The notes under the pieces were generated by a model. That model was not told the origin of the DNA, did no database searches, and worked only from the letters and a program-made list of their open reading frames with translations. From Acidimicrobiales bacterium (GTDB taxonomy: Bacteria; Actinomycetota; Acidimicrobiia; Acidimicrobiales; CADCSY01), in assembly GCA_038233555.1 (NCBI GenBank), contig JBBSLT010000002.1, forward strand, positions 1 to 48,189: 48,189 nt of DNA, written 5' to 3'. The translations under genes were made by a program, and so were the position numbers. This document shows positions 15,603 to 48,189 of the stretch, piece after piece. Within the stretch, counting starts at the first letter, position 1, and every line of letters starts with the position of its first letter.

Positions 15603-16328
15603 CTAGACCCGGCCGATGTGCTTGAAGGCTTCACCCACCTCGACGCCGGCGAGGGCGCCCATCTCCGCCAGCCGCTCGCCCATACGCCGGCCAAAGGCGC
15701 CGACCTGAACGGCGTCGTGGGGGTCGTCGATCTCGTGAGTGGAGCGGTACTGGCTGCGGTGCTCGAGCAGCGCAGCCACCTTGGCCTCGAGATAGCCGCC
15801 CACCTCCTCGACGTGGTCGACCTCGTCGGCCTCCCACAACAGCATGGCCGAGGGTCGGTGATGGGGGAGTTGCTGCTCGGGGAAGAAGTGAGGGTCGCGG
15901 GCCGCGACCACGCCTTCGACGGCCAGGAAGCCGGCGTGGCGGTGGTCGGGATGCAGGCGCCAGCGCTTCCAGGGATCGTGGCCGAGCACCACCTGGGGGC
16001 GGAGGCGGCGGATCCAATAGGCCAGCTCCCAGCGCTGGCGTAGCCCCGACTCCAGCTCTCCGTCGACCCAACCGAGGAACACGCACTCGCCGGTGGCGCC
16101 CAGCACCCGGGCCGCAGCCCGCTGCTCGCGCTGGCGCTCCACCACCAGTCGGGCGGTGTCCTCCGTTGGGTCCCACGAACCCTTGGAGCCGTCGGTGCAG
16201 ATGAGATGGTGGACGACGCAGCCCGCAGCGGCCCACTTGGCCAGGGTGGCCCCACATCCGAACTCCACGTCGTCGGGGTGCGCGCCCACGGCCAGGGCGA
16301 CGGTCGGGACGTCGAGGTCTAGCTGCAC
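15603..16328 (-). CDS. PIG-L family deacetylase (LmbE/MshB-like)
   Basis: AVGAHPDDVEFGCGATL (PIG-L AHPDD motif) and HPDHRH. Start set at GTG 16328. The N-terminal 245 aa of ORF 15603-17063 are Arg/Pro-rich shadow sequence over fbiD. Confidence 0.8.
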   Translation of the reverse strand: MQLDLDVPTVALAVGAHPDDVEFGCGATLAKWAAAGCVVHHLICTDGSKGSWDPTEDTARLVVERQREQRAAARVLGATGECVFLGWVDGELESGLRQRWELAYWIRRLRPQVVLGHDPWKRWRLHPDHRHAGFLAVEGVVAARDPHFFPEQQLPHHRPSAMLLWEADEVDHVEEVGGYLEAKVAALLEHRSQYRSTHEIDDPHDAVQVGAFGRRMGERLAEMGALAGVEVGEAFKHIGRV

Positions 16329-22553: not shown

Positions 22554-23542
22554 GCGTCCCCCCTCTCGAGGCGGCCCTGGCCGCCGGTGACCTCGACGAG
22601 TTGGTGCGTTGGGTCGACCGCCTGGTGGCGGCCGGCGACTGGGACGCGCTGGTGAATCTGGCCCACCTCAGCCGGACTGGCTTCGAGCGCAGCGGCCACC
22701 AGCTCTGGCCCATCACCAGCCAGGTCGAGTACCGCCTGGCCCTCGAAGCCCCGGCTCCGTGGGCGGCGGCGACGGTGGTTGAGGGCTCGGGACGCTTTGC
22801 CCTCGGTCCGCTCGCCGAGGTGGCGGCGTCGACCCATAGCTGGACCGAACTGGTCCCTCACCTGGCGCCGGGACCAGGTGCGGGCCTCGTCGCCCACGAG
22901 CGGGTGGTTCGGGGCGAGGCGGTTGTCGACGATGGGGGATCGGAAACCGAGGTGTTGGAGCTGCCGCTGACTCTTCAGGCCTGGGAGCCCGACTACGCGG
23001 TGGCGACCTACCGACCGGACGGGGCCGACTTCCCCGCTCCCGCACTCGGCGCCTTTCGCCCCCTGACCCTGCCGGCGCCGGGTCCGCCGGTCAACGATGC
23101 CGACGCACCGGCGGCGCTGGCCGCCCTGGTCGAGGTCTGGGTGGTGGAGTCCAACGGCGTGGTCAAGGTGGTGGCGGTCGAGGGAACCGCTGACGGCGCC
23201 ATCGCCGCCTTGGGCCACGTCGATGTCAGGGCCCGAGAGGTCGGCTCCGGGCCGGCGCTGGCGGCCATGGCGTGGGCCGGCGCCAGCGGAGGAGCGCATG
23301 GCCGCCGCCGGGGTGCAGCCGTAGGCCGCTTCGGCGCCTGGTGGGCGCTGGCGGCCCTGACCGGCCTCCTGGACGACTGGCCAGTACCTCCAGCCGAGCT
23401 CGGCATCGCCGCCAAAGAGCTCCGCTACCTCCTGTGGGAACCAAAGAACCCCACCTCCGGCTGGTCCCTCCACCTAGCCATAGAGGATCCGGCGGAAGGC
23501 CTGGCCTGGGCCATAGCCGCCACCGACCAGATGGAACCGTAG
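22550..23542 (+). CDS. hypothetical protein, translationally coupled to the SCO1664-family gene
   Basis: 330-aa ORF with coding-like composition. GTG start overlaps the upstream TGA (GTGTGA). No motif I recognise. Confidence 0.55.
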   Translation: MSVPPLEAALAAGDLDELVRWVDRLVAAGDWDALVNLAHLSRTGFERSGHQLWPITSQVEYRLALEAPAPWAAATVVEGSGRFALGPLAEVAASTHSWTELVPHLAPGPGAGLVAHERVVRGEAVVDDGGSETEVLELPLTLQAWEPDYAVATYRPDGADFPAPALGAFRPLTLPAPGPPVNDADAPAALAALVEVWVVESNGVVKVVAVEGTADGAIAALGHVDVRAREVGSGPALAAMAWAGASGGAHGRRRGAAVGRFGAWWALAALTGLLDDWPVPPAELGIAAKELRYLLWEPKNPTSGWSLHLAIEDPAEGLAWAIAATDQMEP

Positions 23543-23570
23543 GGCCGCTATAGAAGGAGCAGGGAGGAGC

Positions 23571-23694
23571 GGCCGCCGGATGGCGGCCCAGAAAGGTGTT
23601 CAGTGCGGAGGTTGCCGGGCTTTGCCCGGTGACCGGAGCACAACCAAGGCTCGCCGTCGAACCTATGGTTCGGCGGTGATGGACGAGTGAAGGG
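23571..23694 (-). repeat. stop-codon-proximal multi-hairpin element, copy A
   Basis: Read on the minus strand it starts 5 nt after the fur-like stop codon. Shares boxes CCCT(T)CACTCG, GTGCTCCG, CGGGCAAAGCCCG and CTGAACAC with 28454-28551, and the CGCCGAACC/GGTTCG..CGGCG hairpin with 47508-47536. Confidence 0.7.
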
Positions 23695-23699
23695 ACCGC

Positions 23700-24134
23700 T
23701 CAGGCGCAGCCTGAGCAGGTCCCGATCAAGTCCAAGCGGTGATGTTCGGGCGAGAAGCCGGTGGTATTGGCCACCTCGGAGATGGCCTTGGCGACGGTGC
23801 GCTCGACCTGGGGTGAGGCAGTGAAGTCCTCCACGCCCCCGCACGAGGAGCAGATCAGGTGGTGGTGGTGGTGGGTGAGATCCTCGGCCAGCTCGTAGCG
23901 GGCGAAGTCGTCGGTGGTGACGACCCGGTGGACCGCCCCCGCCTGGCTGAGCACGGCCAAGTTTCTATACACCGAGCTCTGAGCCAGCCCGCCCATGAGG
24001 GTCAAGACGTCGGGGATGGACAGCGGATGGTTGGAGTCGGCGAGGAGATCGACGAGGGCGCGACGCTGTGTCGTATAGCGCTGACCGACGCCCCGAAGGC
24101 GTTCGGCAACCGTGGTGTGGACGTCGAGCTGCAT
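23700..24134 (-). CDS. Fur family transcriptional regulator (Fur/Zur-like)
   Basis: HTH region (TTQRRALVDLL, SVYRNLAVL), His-rich HHHHHLICSSCG and C-terminal CSGC zinc site. Confidence 0.85.
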   Translation of the reverse strand: MQLDVHTTVAERLRGVGQRYTTQRRALVDLLADSNHPLSIPDVLTLMGGLAQSSVYRNLAVLSQAGAVHRVVTTDDFARYELAEDLTHHHHHLICSSCGGVEDFTASPQVERTVAKAISEVANTTGFSPEHHRLDLIGTCSGCA

Positions 24135-24874: not shown

Positions 24875-24971
24875 CTGGCCACTCTCGCGCAAACGCCCGG
24901 CTCCGTGCCGGTCGATGCACCCCCCGACCCATCCGTCCGACCGCCCGCCCGTCCGCCCGTCCCTCCCTCGA

Positions 24972-25016
24972 TCTTTGTCGCGTTCTGCACCGTACGGGTC
25001 CACAGCGCGACAAAGA
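24972..25016. repeat. palindromic hairpin repeat TCTTTGTCGCG-N23-CGCGACAAAGA, copy 1
   Basis: 11-bp perfect arms (24972-24982 / 25006-25016) with a 23-nt spacer. C-rich tract on the left and G-rich tract on the right. Second copy at 36695-36747. Confidence 0.75.
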
Positions 25017-25026
25017 ACGAAAGGGG

Positions 25027-25917
25027 ATGGAGAGAAGGGGGTGGGGAGGAGCGTCGGTAGCGTGGTCGTCGATGGGTGAGACCGGGAGGATCGAGGCGCC
25101 GTTGGCCGGTCGCCGCATCGGTCTCACCGCCGACCGCAAGGCCACGGAGCAAGCCGAGCTGTTTCGCCGGCGGGGCGCCATGGTGCTCCACGGACCCACC
25201 ATGACCACCGTCGACCTGTCCGGCGAGGACGCGCTACGCCACGCCACCGTCACCCTCGTGGAGGACCCGCCTGACCACCTTGTGGTCACCACCGGCATGG
25301 GGCTGCGCCTGTGGTTGGAGGCGGCCGGCGGCTGGGGCCTGGAGGACACGCTGGTCAAAGCCTTGAGCACGACCACCATCGTCGCCCGGGGGGCCAAGGC
25401 GGCCTCGGCCGTGCGCCGGGCCGGTCTGGACGTCGCCTGGCGGGCACCTGGTGAGAACATGGCCGAGGTGGTGGCCCACCTGGCCGAGACGACGGATGGC
25501 GGGAGCCGGCCCCGGATTGCACTCCAGCTCTTCGATCCCGCCGATCACGCCTCCACCACGGCCCTGCGGGCCCTCGCCAGCGAGTTGGTGGAGGTGCCCG
25601 TCTACCGCTGGCGCCGCCCCGACGACCTGGGACCGGCTCAGGAGTTGGTGAGCGCCACCATCGCCGGCGAGCTCGATGCCGTGACCTTCACCAGCCAGCC
25701 GGCGGTACGCAACCTGGTGGGCATCGCCGCCGACCAAGGCCGGGCCGGTGCGCTCCTGGCTGTCCTCAACGCCGGCGTGGTAGCCGCCTGCGTCGGACCG
25801 GTGTGCGCCGAGGCGGCGAGGGAGGTAGGGATCAACGACCCGCTGTGGCCCGATCCTCCCCGCCTGCCGGCCATGGTCCGCCAGGTCACCGAGCACCTCG
25901 TGGCGGGGAGATCCTGA
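25027..25917 (+). CDS. uroporphyrinogen-III synthase family protein (HemD-like, stand-alone)
   Basis: HEM4-type pattern (LAGRRIGLT..., VTFTSQPAVRNL). Start uncertain (ATG 25027 or ATG 25072). Confidence 0.65.
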   Translation: MERRGWGGASVAWSSMGETGRIEAPLAGRRIGLTADRKATEQAELFRRRGAMVLHGPTMTTVDLSGEDALRHATVTLVEDPPDHLVVTTGMGLRLWLEAAGGWGLEDTLVKALSTTTIVARGAKAASAVRRAGLDVAWRAPGENMAEVVAHLAETTDGGSRPRIALQLFDPADHASTTALRALASELVEVPVYRWRRPDDLGPAQELVSATIAGELDAVTFTSQPAVRNLVGIAADQGRAGALLAVLNAGVVAACVGPVCAEAAREVGINDPLWPDPPRLPAMVRQVTEHLVAGRS

Positions 25918-27749: not shown

Positions 27750-28450
27750 CCGACACGATCGTCAACCTGCGCACCGCCGCCGTCGAGCGGCCCCGTTCCT
27801 TCAGCGTCAGCGAGCTGGCAGCGGTCAGTGATGGTTTGGAGGCGGCCACCGCCAGCGAGGTGGTGGCGTGGGCGGTGGAGCACTTCCATCCCGCCCTCAG
27901 CCTCACCTCGTCGATGACCGATGCCGTGCTCATCGACTTGGCCGTACGGGTGGAGCCCTCAATCGAGGTGGTCTTCATCGACACCGGTTATCACTTCCCC
28001 GAGACCCTGCAGACCTTGGAGCGGGTGCGGCGCCACTACGGGCTGAACCTGCGGGTCATGACCGTGGCCCACCATGACGACGAGCTGTGGAAGGTCGATC
28101 CCGAGAACTGCTGCTCGGCGGTCAAGGTCGGTCAGCTCGACCGGGCCTTGGCCGGCAAGGCGGCGTGGATGAGCGGGCTCCGTCGCTCTGAGTCTGCCAG
28201 TCGCGCCGCCGCTCCGATCGTCGGCCACGATGTGCGGGGTCTGGTAAAGGTCAATCCGATCGCCACCTGGTCCGACGACGACGTCGATCGCTACGTCGCC
28301 GCCCACGACGTGCCCGTCAACCCGCTGCTGCGTCAGGGCTATCACTCGATCGGCTGCGCTCCCTGCACGGCGCCGGCCGTGGACGGCGCCGGGTCCCGGT
28401 CCGGCCGCTGGAGTGACAGCGATAAGACCGAGTGCGGGCTCCACCTCTAA
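27746..28450 (+). CDS. cysH: adenylyl-sulfate (APS)/PAPS reductase, thioredoxin-dependent, Fe-S type
   Basis: PP-loop-like FIDTGYHFPET, Cys pairs NCCSAVK and SIGCAPCT, C-terminal KTECGLH. ATG 27746 overlaps the sirA stop (ATGA); GTG 27734 is the alternative. Confidence 0.85.
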   Translation: MTDTIVNLRTAAVERPRSFSVSELAAVSDGLEAATASEVVAWAVEHFHPALSLTSSMTDAVLIDLAVRVEPSIEVVFIDTGYHFPETLQTLERVRRHYGLNLRVMTVAHHDDELWKVDPENCCSAVKVGQLDRALAGKAAWMSGLRRSESASRAAAPIVGHDVRGLVKVNPIATWSDDDVDRYVAAHDVPVNPLLRQGYHSIGCAPCTAPAVDGAGSRSGRWSDSDKTECGLHL

Positions 28451-28453
28451 TCG

Positions 28454-28551
28454 CCCTCACTCGCTTCGCTCCGTTCGGGCGAGCTGGGTCGTGCTCCGAC
28501 CGACGGGCAAAGCCCGCCGGTCTCCGCCCTGAACACTTCCTGGTCATCCAG
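28454..28551 (+). repeat. stop-codon-proximal multi-hairpin element, copy B
   Basis: Starts 4 nt after the cysH TAA. 37 of 46 hand-aligned core positions are identical to copy A (reverse complement of 23595-23640). The CACTTCCTGG box is shared with copy C. Confidence 0.7.
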
Positions 28552-28595
28552 AGGGGCGCCTTCGACGTTTCTGTGGCCGGTGGCCACCTCTAGCC

Positions 28596-46516: not shown

Positions 46517-47503
46517 GTGATGGAGTTCGTCCCCAAGAAGAAGCTTCAGCTGTTGGCTGGGCGCACCCACGCCGCCCTGGCCCGGGAGATCGCCGCTCAC
46601 CTAGGCGTCGAGCTGGGCGAGACCAACCTCATCGACTTCGCCAATAGCGAGATGCGTTGTCGCTTCGGGGAGTCGGTTCGAGGCGCCGACGTCTTCGTCA
46701 TCCAGACGCACTGCGAGTCCGACGGCCGTTCCGTGAACGACTCGCTCATCGAGCAGTTCATCATGATCGACGCCGCCAAGCGGGCGTCGGCTAAGCGCAT
46801 CACCGCCGTTTGCCCGTACTACGGATACTCCCGCCAGGACCGCAAGAGCCAGGGACGAGAGCCGATCACCGCCAAGTTGGTGGCCGACATGCTTTCGGCG
46901 GCGGGGGCCAACCGGGTGCTGAGCGTCGATCTGCACTCCGGACAGATCCAAGGCTTCTTCGATGGCCCCTTCGACCACCTGACGGCCATGCCCGTGCTCG
47001 TGGAGTACCTCCGGGCCCACCTGCCGGGCGATGTGGTGGTGGTGGCCCCCGATGCCGGAAGGGTCAAGGCGGCCGAGCGCTTCGCCCGCCACCTCGGCAA
47101 CGACATGGCGTCGGTGTACAAGCGCAGGCAAAAGGCCTCGATCAACGAGGTGGAGGCCCTCGGCGTGATGGGCGACGTCGCCGGCCGAAGCTGTGTCTTG
47201 GTCGACGACATGATCGACACGGCCGGCACCATGTGCGCCGCCGTCGGTCAGCTCAAGCGTGAGGGTGCGTCGGAGGTCTGGGCCGTCGCCACCCACGGCT
47301 TGTTCTCGGGACCAGCCATCGACCGGCTCAAGAACTCGGTGATCGACCGGGTGGTGATCACCGACACGCTGCCCCTGCCGGCGGAGAAGCGAATCGACAA
47401 GATCGAGGTCCTGTCAGTGGCCAAGCTCATCGCCGACGCCATCGACGCCGTCTTCGAGGACACCTCGGTGTCGGAGATCTTCGGCGGTGAGAACCAGGCC
47501 TAG
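46517..47503 (+). CDS. prs: ribose-phosphate diphosphokinase
   Basis: YYGYSRQDRK, VSVDLHSGQIQGFF, PRPP loop VLVDDMIDTAGT. GTG 46517 or ATG 46520. Confidence 0.9.
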   Translation: MMEFVPKKKLQLLAGRTHAALAREIAAHLGVELGETNLIDFANSEMRCRFGESVRGADVFVIQTHCESDGRSVNDSLIEQFIMIDAAKRASAKRITAVCPYYGYSRQDRKSQGREPITAKLVADMLSAAGANRVLSVDLHSGQIQGFFDGPFDHLTAMPVLVEYLRAHLPGDVVVVAPDAGRVKAAERFARHLGNDMASVYKRRQKASINEVEALGVMGDVAGRSCVLVDDMIDTAGTMCAAVGQLKREGASEVWAVATHGLFSGPAIDRLKNSVIDRVVITDTLPLPAEKRIDKIEVLSVAKLIADAIDAVFEDTSVSEIFGGENQA

Positions 47504-47645
47504 GGCCTCGCCGCCGAACCGGAGGTTCGGCGGCGAACTGGTGGTGCCCCGACCGGCGGCGGAGCCACCGGTCGGGGCGCTGACCACTTCCTGGCCGAGC
47601 TTCGCTCGGCTGGGCCGCCGGCCAGGGCGGGCCGCCTTCGGCGGC
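47504..47645 (+). repeat. stop-codon-proximal multi-hairpin element, copy C (extended)
   Basis: Starts 4 nt after the prs TAG. Hairpins at 47508-47536 (13 bp), 47546-47578 (11 bp), 47594-47610 (7 bp) and 47631-47645 (6 bp). Linkers ACTGGTGGTGCCCCG and CTGACCACTTCCTGG match copies A and B. Confidence 0.7.
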
Positions 47646-47684
47646 GGGTGTGGCCGGCGGCAAACGCCGTCCTAGACTCACACG

Positions 47685-48189
47685 ATGGCTGAACTGGCGT
47701 TGCAGGCTGAGACGGGACGGACGAAGGGGTCGCGCTCCTCGCGTCGACTGCGCACTGAGGGCAAGATCCCCGGGGTCGTCTACGGCCACGGGATCGAGCC
47801 GCTTTCGGTTGCCGTCAACCGGCGAGAGCTGCGGGCAGTGCTCACCACCGAGGCGGGCATGAACGCCCTTATCGACCTCGGCGTCGACGACCAGCAACAC
47901 CTCACCATCGTGCGTGACGTGCAGCGCCACCCCATTCGCAACGAGGTCATCCACCTTGACTTCGTGATCGTCCGTCGCGACGAGGTCATCACCGTGGAGG
48001 TGCCGATCGTGCTGACGGGCTCCGCCGAGCAGGTGAGGCGCGAGGCCGGCACCGTCGACCAGGTCCTGTTCAGCCTCAGCGTCCTCGGCCGGCCGGGAAG
48101 CTTCCCCAACGAGCTCGAGGTCGACATCTCTGGTCTGACCATCGGAGACAGCATCCACGTCAGGGATCTCGCCCTGCCCGAAGGCGTCA
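47685..48189 (+). CDS. rplY: 50S ribosomal protein L25 / general stress protein Ctc (3' end outside window)
   Basis: MAELALQAETGRTKGSRSSRRLRTEGKIPGVVYGHG... is the canonical L25/Ctc N-terminus. Open to the window end, so missing from the ORF track. glmU-prs-rplY synteny. Confidence 0.85.
   Translation, partial: MAELALQAETGRTKGSRSSRRLRTEGKIPGVVYGHGIEPLSVAVNRRELRAVLTTEAGMNALIDLGVDDQQHLTIVRDVQRHPIRNEVIHLDFVIVRRDEVITVEVPIVLTGSAEQVRREAGTVDQVLFSLSVLGRPGSFPNELEVDISGLTIGDSIHVRDLALPEGV

Follow-up and report, generated by a model that had tools for sequence, protein, structure and literature searches.

A putative lineage-restricted family of modular palindromic repeats behind stop codons in uncultured Acidimicrobiales

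The DNA analyzed here, hereafter the window, is a 48,189-nt stretch of an Acidimicrobiales bacterium (GenBank assembly GCA_038233555.1, contig JBBSLT010000002.1, positions 1 to 48,189) with a G+C content of 70%. It carries three related GC-rich multi-hairpin repeats of about 140–160 bases, each shortly after the stop codon of a gene: element A after fur, which encodes a Fur-family regulator, element B after cysH, for the phosphoadenosine phosphosulfate (PAPS) reductase CysH, and element C after prs, for the ribose-phosphate pyrophosphokinase Prs. An initial annotation, made from the sequence, had proposed three related intergenic segments, and all three were found where it had placed them.

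Element A occupies 23551–23695 on the minus strand, between the convergent stop codons of the Fur-family gene (TGA, 23700–23702) and of a gene for a 330-aa protein (TAG, 23540–23542). Read along the minus strand, it consists of a TCCCTTCACTCG box, hairpin 1 (23652–23675; CGCCGAACC-ATA-GGTTCG(A)CGGCG), a 73-nt core (23584–23658), hairpin 4 (23571–23588; GGCCGCC-ATCC-GGCGGCC) and GCTCCTCCCTGCTCC. The core holds an interrupted hairpin at 23603–23641, flanked by the boxes GGCGAGCC..GGTTGTGCTCCG and GCACTGAACACCTTTCTGG. A 36-codon open reading frame (ORF) on the reverse (plus) strand of A, at 23588–23698, runs from ATG to GAG TGA, the latter being the TCACTCG box read backwards; read by eye, its frame is not kept in the related locus L121 and is shifted by indels between copies, and it is probably no gene. 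(Loci outside the window are given L numbers throughout.)

Element B lies on the plus strand at 28451–28585, between cysH (TAA, 28448–28450) and a sirohaem-synthase-like gene (GTG, 28596). Its parts are a TCGCCCTCACTCGCTTCGCTCCGTTCGG left module, the core (28475–28548, hairpin 28491–28529), a degenerate hairpin 4 and TGTGGCCGGTGGCC; hairpin 3, which the orthologues of B possess, is missing. Element C, at 47508–47661 on the plus strand, between prs (TAG, 47501–47503) and an L25/Ctc gene (ATG, 47685), represents the full-length form, in the order hairpin 1 (47508–47536; TCGCCGCCGAACC-GGA-GGTTCGGCGGCGA), core (47529–47599), hairpin 3 (47595–47609; CCGAGC-TTC-GCTCGG), CTGGGCCGCC, and hairpin 4 with the terminal module (47630–47661; GGCCGCC-TTC-GGCGGC, followed by TGTGGCCGGCGGC at 47649–47661). 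Its core hairpin (47544–47580) is of type II, with CCC/GGG pairs replacing an internal loop. The L25/ctc gene downstream lacks a Shine-Dalgarno sequence and has TAGACT 6 nt before its ATG (window 47673–47687), a leaderless-type promoter layout; the relative L131 has TACACT at a similar place, 7 nt before its ATG.

The relatedness of the three elements was evident by several measures. The pattern GTGCYCCG-N15-40-CTGAMCACYT has exactly three matches in the window and none in 100 shuffles, and no inverted repeat pair in the window is longer than that formed by A and B (53 nt, 79% complementary). A covariance model built from seven copies was run on the window and scored A at 81.6, B at 80.2 and C at 70.8 bits; the next match reached 18.6 bits, and no other copy was found in the whole window. 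The resemblances described earlier were likewise recovered: A and C have hairpin 1 in common, B and C share CACTTCCTGG, and A and B share the box CCCT(T)CACTCG. The covariation described at the base of the second hairpin holds as well, pairs 26–48 and 27–47 being G-C/U-A in A and A-U/C-G in B, with the UCC/UCC internal loop turned into CCC/GGG in C. The copies share more side modules than had been noticed: the terminal hairpins, first thought to differ in sequence, are instead drawn from a common set (a GGCCGCC-TTC-GGCGGCC-type hairpin, CTGGGCCGCC, TGTGGCCGGYGGCC and CCTCGCTGCTCC).

When copies from elsewhere were included in the alignment, the common element proved to be the 73-nt core. In it, two boxes conserved in sequence, GGCGARC-(1–3 nt)-GGTNGTGCYCCG on the 5' side and GCNCTGAMCACYT(Y)CTGG on the 3' side, enclose an interrupted hairpin of 18 pairs; its loop is 3 nt long, and many copies also have a UCC/UCC internal loop. 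Across 12 aligned copies, 82.7% of the stem cells are paired, compared with 27–48% when the 3' partners are slid by 1–3 columns; six core pairs change on both sides, and the covariation score was reached by none of 500 shuffles. The 12-copy alignment was fitted to the covariance model and hence leans towards structure; a MAFFT alignment agrees (seven copies for the pair count). In the boxes it is the sequence that is conserved, and no pairing partner is supported for them. An outer stem between them (GGTGGT with ACCACC) was considered and rejected, as it occurs only in the C-type copies (element C, L121 and L126) and shows no compensatory change.

Around this core, the elements are assembled from alternatives. 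The left modules are TCACTCG-CTTCGCTCCGTTCG, CGCCGAACC-NNN-GGTTCG(N)CGGCG or GCAACC-NGA-GGTTGC, and the right side draws on hairpin 3 (CGAGC-TTC-GCTCG), CTGGGCCGCC, hairpin 4 (GGCCGCC-TTC-GGCGGCC), TGTGGCCGGYGGCC and, in some copies, CCTCGCTGCTCC. Family members range from about 110 to 190 nt; C and L122 reach the full length of about 155–180 nt, and A, B, L121 and L125 carry differing deletions. These differing combinations and deletions amount to a BIME-type mosaic in design, and in design only. Folded as whole RNAs, A (z = -3.6) and C (z = -7.2) are more stable than shuffled sequences, and B is no better than its shuffles (z = -0.86). Two candidate identities for parts of the element fitted poorly on reading by eye. 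Compared with a LexA box (GAAC-N4-GTTC), hairpin 1 has a spacing of 5 nt, and GAAC is missing from its other variants; the likeness of the box CACCUUUCU to the 16S 3' end is weak and not conserved.

A few metagenome-assembled genomes (MAGs) and metagenome contigs of Acidimicrobiales yielded further copies, behind five more genes unrelated to these. They follow a CysN-like GTPase gene (L121 and L126, one locus), an MscS channel gene (mscS; L122), a BatA/VWA gene (batA; L125) and a 207-codon ORF that is cox3-like by eye from its C-terminal sequence (L127). In L211, a left end, hairpin 1 and GGCGAG stand at 15920–15975, inside the last ~50 nt of a cobA/hemD ORF; this gene seems to run through the 5' element fragment to a later stop codon. 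Exact-pattern scans of a 596-Gb genome collection gave 2–3 true matches each, and one Nocardia match, inside a coding sequence, was due to chance. The looser pattern of the initial annotation matched at least 119 loci in the collection, and the 119 listed were all chance matches on inspection. Searches of plasmids and viral contigs yielded no copy.

No name for the family emerged, as the initial annotation had anticipated: there is no Rfam match, the best sub-threshold scores at A, B and C being 15–23 bits against thresholds of 41–80, and in an Rfam scan of the window only a tRNA-Gln reached threshold. No TRIT match appeared in the Rfam scans either, so far as Rfam covers that motif. The host range appears narrow. 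Among species representatives, the best Prs match to the window is 75% identical, and the same population was found as short contigs in Logan runs, a JGI sample and the PPFU01 metagenome. The covariance model found no copy in 1.25 Mb around prs in 80 relatives (Prs at most 75% identical), which indicates that the family is confined to a narrow clade. The prs–ctc spacers of the 10 nearest relatives contain no element; with this result and the empty 80 prs loci, the idea that element C is an ancient leader of L25/ctc was rejected. Other GC-hairpin arrays with TTC loops do follow prs in distant Actinomycetota (L164:11000–11184 and L133; Prs 54–66% identical). They have short motifs in common with the family (CTCGCTTCGCTC; GGCCGGCTTCGCCGGC) but not the core, and may represent a broader class of such arrays.

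In every case the family occupies 3'-end spacers behind unrelated genes, in several genomes, and these spacers are tandem or convergent: the seven independent sites with known neighbours comprise four convergent ones (A, L121, L122, L125) and three tandem ones (B, C, L127), with no divergent case. The earlier statement that the elements lie on the strand of the upstream gene is informative only at the tandem sites B, C and L127, and owes much to how few such sites there are; it loses its meaning at A, which lies between convergent genes and has a stop codon on both sides. Nor is the distance from the stop codon fixed at 4–5 nt, as first described. The left end, (T)TTCGCC or TCGCC, begins 0–8 nt after the stop, the core 25–45 nt after it, and the first stem, in most copies, no more than 15 nt from it.

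The history of sites A and B was followed in syntenic contigs covering both, found via CysH homologues. Both elements are full in L209 (CysH 88% identical, coding DNA ~86%). L215 (CysH 79%) has no Fur gene at the locus and a full element at site B. In L210 (CysH 87%), site A is occupied by an unrelated perfect palindrome, GCGTCAACCAGTGGTC.., and site B keeps the 5' half only; in L214 (CysH 86%), site A keeps the 5' part only and site B a 24-nt remnant, TCGTCCTCAC..CCTCTGAT; in L211 (CysH 83%), site A keeps the 3' half only and site B is a 7-nt spacer. Genomes that differ at 20–24% of four-fold sites thus still carry copies at identical places, and the elements at A and B are old residents eroding by deletion, with flanking genes and gene order unchanged. 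The spacer between cysH and the next gene, 7 nt in L211 and 24 nt in L214, also bears on the closeness to stop codons that the initial annotation had pointed out. This closeness mostly follows from the original spacers having been very short, such that any insert must abut a stop.

The palindrome at site A of L210 belongs to a second, unrelated repeat. Near-perfect copies (GCGTCAACCAGTGGTC..GACCACTGGTTGACGC) stand between convergent genes at different places in L209 (2104–2171) and L210 (6013–6051), where it replaces the family; the window contains none.

A contig of the same species as the window, L212, is 98.9% identical to it over 14.5 kb. Element B accounts for 65 of the 182 alignment columns that differ, and a spacer with repeats near 24,900 for another 31; outside both hotspots the difference is ~0.6%. 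In element B of L212, the left ~110 nt, comprising the left-module type and the core, are replaced, and the right part and both flanks are identical to the window. The replaced stretch takes in the last sense codon and the stop codon of cysH, TTG TAG instead of the CTC TAA of the window (three of six bases differ; window 28446–28450, L212:4864–4868), the CysH protein being identical; it opens with TTGTAG-TTTCGCCGCCGAACCTCC and continues into a core that resembles that of C.

The second hotspot corresponds to the spacer between the divergent DUF169 and HEM4 genes (window 24933–25048). It consists of a C-rich tandem repeat, CCGTCCGC, at 24933–24962, a palindrome with 24-nt arms at 24968–25020 and a purine-rich repeat at 25021–25048, and this ~130-nt block is absent from L209 and L210. 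The 31 differences there arise because the number of repeat units differs.

Comparison of 11 cores pointed in the same direction as the allele replaced in L212, in that cores do not group by orthologous site. The core of element A is 81% identical to that of L122 and 76% identical to those of L121 and L125, but only 69% identical to its orthologue in L209; the window core of B is 58% identical to the L212 core at the same site, and that of C is 75% identical to it. Four-fold sites in cysH, fur and the sulfite reductase gene are 76–80% identical between the window and L209, and purifying selection on orthologous copies is thus not supported. Orthologous copies thus change as fast as silent sites or faster while the boxes are kept, a combination we read as recombination or gene conversion between copies; judging from the sequences, such exchange, possibly with a shared sequence-specific partner, would keep the copies alike. 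Three independent short-read contigs of the window's population end inside elements, L212 starting at window position 23612 (A), L213 ending at 28522 (B) and L208 ending at 47631 (C), as fits repeats or hypervariable alleles.

An alternative is that the elements are classical miniature inverted-repeat transposable elements (MITEs), moved by an insertion sequence (IS) transposase with a target duplication of ~9 bp and surviving only where the duplication preserved the stop codon. For flank repeats, the 21 nt surrounding every upstream stop were compared with the distal end of the same spacer. At site B, CCACCTCTAG (28584–28593, plus strand) is a direct repeat of the last cysH codons and stop, CCACCTCTAA (28441–28450). 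This 9-nt repeat, CCACCTCTA(A) / CCACCTCTAG, directly adjoins the element on either side (window, p ~0.001; L209, p 0.016), is also present in L212, and could be a target-site duplication. A weaker direct flank repeat, GCTGAGGTG and GCYGAGGCG, is seen at the L121/L126 locus, and the size of 110–190 nt is typical of MITEs. Against these points, seven of the eight independent sites lack a significant direct repeat, and two convergent sites, L122 and L125, have inverted 9-mers instead (CCGAAGCGT and CCTCCCCTA, p <0.01), formed by the last codons and stops of both genes; the halves in L125 would join into a perfect palindrome, CCTCCCCTAGGGGAGG. The flank repeats at the remaining sites are not significant. 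Together, the flank repeats hint at insertion with target duplication or insertion into pre-existing palindromes, but they are too inconsistent to define the family as a MITE.

Other features also speak against a MITE origin. Terminal inverted repeats were not seen by eye, and no formal search was made: the left end, (T)TTCGCC.. (TTTCGCC), is not the reverse complement of the right end, which reads ..TGTGGCCGGYGGCC or ..CCTCGCTGCTCC (GGCCGGYGGCC). No transposase lies nearby in the window or the syntenic loci, and no empty/filled polymorphism with clean boundaries was found, as site B in both L211 and L214 looks like a deletion remnant. A TA or YTAR target, as used by IS630/IS5-type MITEs, fits the TAG and TAA sites and not the three TGA sites. 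The MITE option, one of those listed in the initial annotation, is thus not borne out in its classical form, and we hold it to be unlikely. Integron attC sites were also considered and set aside, since the neighbouring genes, which lie on both strands, have core housekeeping functions.

The position of every site at a gene 3' end, with four of seven between convergent genes, would also be expected of dedicated terminators without a U-tract, as first proposed for the TRIT elements of mycobacteria (PMC3152330), in which hairpin and boxes would be recognized by RNA polymerase or by another factor. The conservation of boxes that have no pairing partner suggests such a binding factor, and C lies exactly between the end of prs and the leaderless-type ctc promoter, which makes a terminator function at C plausible. 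As noted from the outset, no copy has a U-tract. The canonical combination of a hairpin with a directly following U-tract is not present, no terminator-like site being found at the hairpins of A and B and the only terminator-like matches near B being ones that overlap the start of the gene after it; C was inspected for a U-tract by eye only, its core being followed by CTGACCAC.. and its last module by AAACGCC. A modular terminator of the canonical type, one of the earlier proposals, is therefore not supported. Site B is internal to an operon in which L211 has 7 nt between the genes, and because a strong terminator there would cut off the sirohaem/haem genes, one is unlikely. Copies have been lost or halved in close relatives with flanking genes and order unchanged, orthologous copies evolve at the four-fold-site rate or above, and M. 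tuberculosis 3' ends seldom coincide with predicted terminators, RNIE/TRIT included (bioRxiv 10.1101/2022.06.01.494293). On this balance, dedicated terminators are an improbable account.

A 3'-UTR-derived small RNA, or another trans-acting RNA, is extremely improbable. The stable structure of A and C would suit such a molecule, and the conserved single-stranded boxes could serve as seeds; yet relatives differ freely in which copies they have lost or shortened, a single species holds two widely divergent alleles at one site, and neither an Rfam relative nor promoter-like or terminator-like signals were found.

Taken together, these findings favor the reading that A, B and C belong to a lineage-restricted family of modular palindromic intergenic repeats of the REP/BIME or TRIT kind in an uncultured clade of Acidimicrobiales, to which we assign a probability of about 0.6. 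Copies are mosaic, one site is polymorphic within a species, and erosion by deletion has gone as far as a few bases; probably no single copy is essential. Among the roles proposed in the initial annotation, the REP/BIME-like option fits best, the elements being dispersed, modular, structure-conserving, persistent, mosaic and decaying.

Several observations weigh against this reading. Copies are few, with three in the 48-kb window, 1–2 per other locus and at most two per MAG by the exact pattern, so a high-copy REP-like population is not demonstrated by these counts. Neither a RAYT gene nor another transposase gene was found in the scanned ORFs of the window or in ~110 kb of annotated syntenic sequence from six loci, and 20 kb of synteny in six genomes contained no new insertion, so recent mobility is not demonstrated either. 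In M. tuberculosis, the predictions of TransTermHP, WebGeSTer and RNIE, the last of which covers TRITs, each overlap only 2–4% of mapped 3' ends (bioRxiv 10.1101/2022.06.01.494293). Finally, the antisense strand gives the better-paired core hairpin: its inner stem contains 14 A.C and one G.U on the gene-sense strand and 15 G.U and one A.C on the other, and the reverse-strand hairpin is 2–9 kcal/mol more stable in 11 of 11 copies.

This strand asymmetry qualifies the earlier claim of selection on structure. The conserved stem and its covariation uphold the claim as such, but selection in the mRNA sense does not follow, since under simple selection for an mRNA hairpin an antisense-favoured core stem would not be expected. 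The asymmetry is also the basis for an alternative in which the functional molecule, RNA or a single-stranded DNA hairpin, comes from the strand opposite that of the upstream gene, either a recognition hairpin for an HUH/RAYT enzyme or an antisense RNA, with the sense orientation incidental. In its favor, 86.5% of cells are paired on the reverse strand versus 82.7% on the sense strand, the covariation score is 0.339 versus 0.167, and the A.C positions vary between copies, amounting by our count to ~9 independent events versus one. These events remain few, however; in 7 of 11 copies the sense strand has U.G as the second stem pair, where the reverse strand is mismatched; stability shows no steady strand preference when entire elements are compared, and G.U pairs outside the core favor the sense strand; and at all three tandem sites such a molecule would be antisense to the operon. 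We regard this alternative as very unlikely. The bias could possibly reflect selection that favors a DNA hairpin of the bottom strand or disfavors too stable an mRNA hairpin directly after the stop codon, or, given the few events, chance. If it held in many copies, the A.C/G.U bias would tell which strand and molecule are selected in such repeats.

Under the preferred reading of a palindromic intergenic repeat family, the copies would have arrived by insertion into very short spacers and hence touch stop codons. The hairpin stack behind the stop may then act in the mRNA as a barrier to 3'-to-5' exonucleases, a role suggested by analogy with E. coli REPs, which block these enzymes, stabilize the upstream message and attenuate transcription (PMC5082802, PMC12306157, PMC3337134). 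Alternatively, the stack may be a transcript-end or pause site independent of a U-tract. E. coli REPs also stall ribosomes when they lie no more than 15 nt from the stop codon (PMC5082802, PMC12306157), and the similarly close first stem may damp termination in the same way.

A bolder version, which we consider unlikely, would make the boxes and the asymmetric core the recognition site of a dedicated partner, a bottom-strand HUH/RAYT-like enzyme or an RNA-binding factor, that places or maintains elements precisely at stop codons and sets the fate of ribosomes and mRNA 3' ends. An example would be termination at cysH coupled to re-initiation at the next gene across the 145-nt insert, helped by the repeated CCACCTCTA(A/G); if true, the family would be a stop-codon-targeted mobile regulatory module in Actinomycetota.

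Persistence, decay by deletion, exchange between copies and allele swap within a species can be read straight from metagenomes, and the family breaks short-read assemblies at its loci. The covariance model is useful in annotation, as it marks gene 3' ends and explains long spacers in a tight sulfur/haem operon. Two findings most deserve to be followed further, the within-species allele swap and the strand bias seen in the core hairpin.

Proteobacteria are where interspersed palindromic repeats have been studied in depth; to our knowledge, such repeats have few descriptions from Actinomycetota other than Mycobacterium and none from uncultured Acidimicrobiales. The family resembles REP/BIME of E. 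coli and REP/REPIN of Pseudomonas in combining imperfect GC-rich palindromes with short motifs in mosaic arrays, in being extragenic, at gene 3' ends and within operons, and in being vertically persistent yet species-specific, with copies similar within a lineage. It differs from REP/BIME in having no sequence similarity to it, the E. coli motifs being absent, and from REPs generally in its longer core (18 pairs), its conserved flanking boxes of 12–13 nt and its phylum, Actinomycetota. Unlike a REPIN, it forms no inverted doublet: the core occurs once per element, the other hairpins are different modules, and reverse-strand matches of the model are the same hairpin read backwards. As regards REP–RAYT systems, no RAYT was found in the window or the six syntenic loci, although a single-copy gene could lie elsewhere in the genome, and the copy number per genome is possibly low (three copies counted in 48 kb).

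MITEs such as Correia in Neisseria and RUP/BOX in Streptococcus are likewise 100–200 nt long, intergenic, modular and foldable in transcripts, and one site here has a flanking direct repeat; unlike them, the family has no terminal inverted repeats that could be seen, no consistent target duplication and no identified parent IS. The likeness to TRIT of Mycobacterium is that of an actinobacterial element with conserved sequence and stem, no U-tract, and many copies very near stop codons, in which sequence conservation also led to a suspected binding factor (PMC3152330). TRIT, which occupies a narrow position relative to stop codons, is reported only in Mycobacterium and is largely palindromic, bidirectional and centred ~8 nt inside the coding sequence, whereas the family described here starts 0–8 nt after the stop, is asymmetric by virtue of its boxes, is multi-modular and resides in Acidimicrobiales; its stop position (not about -8) and its host set it apart from TRIT by description. 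The family is unnamed and new; it involves no new mechanism, and the kind of element it represents is a familiar one.

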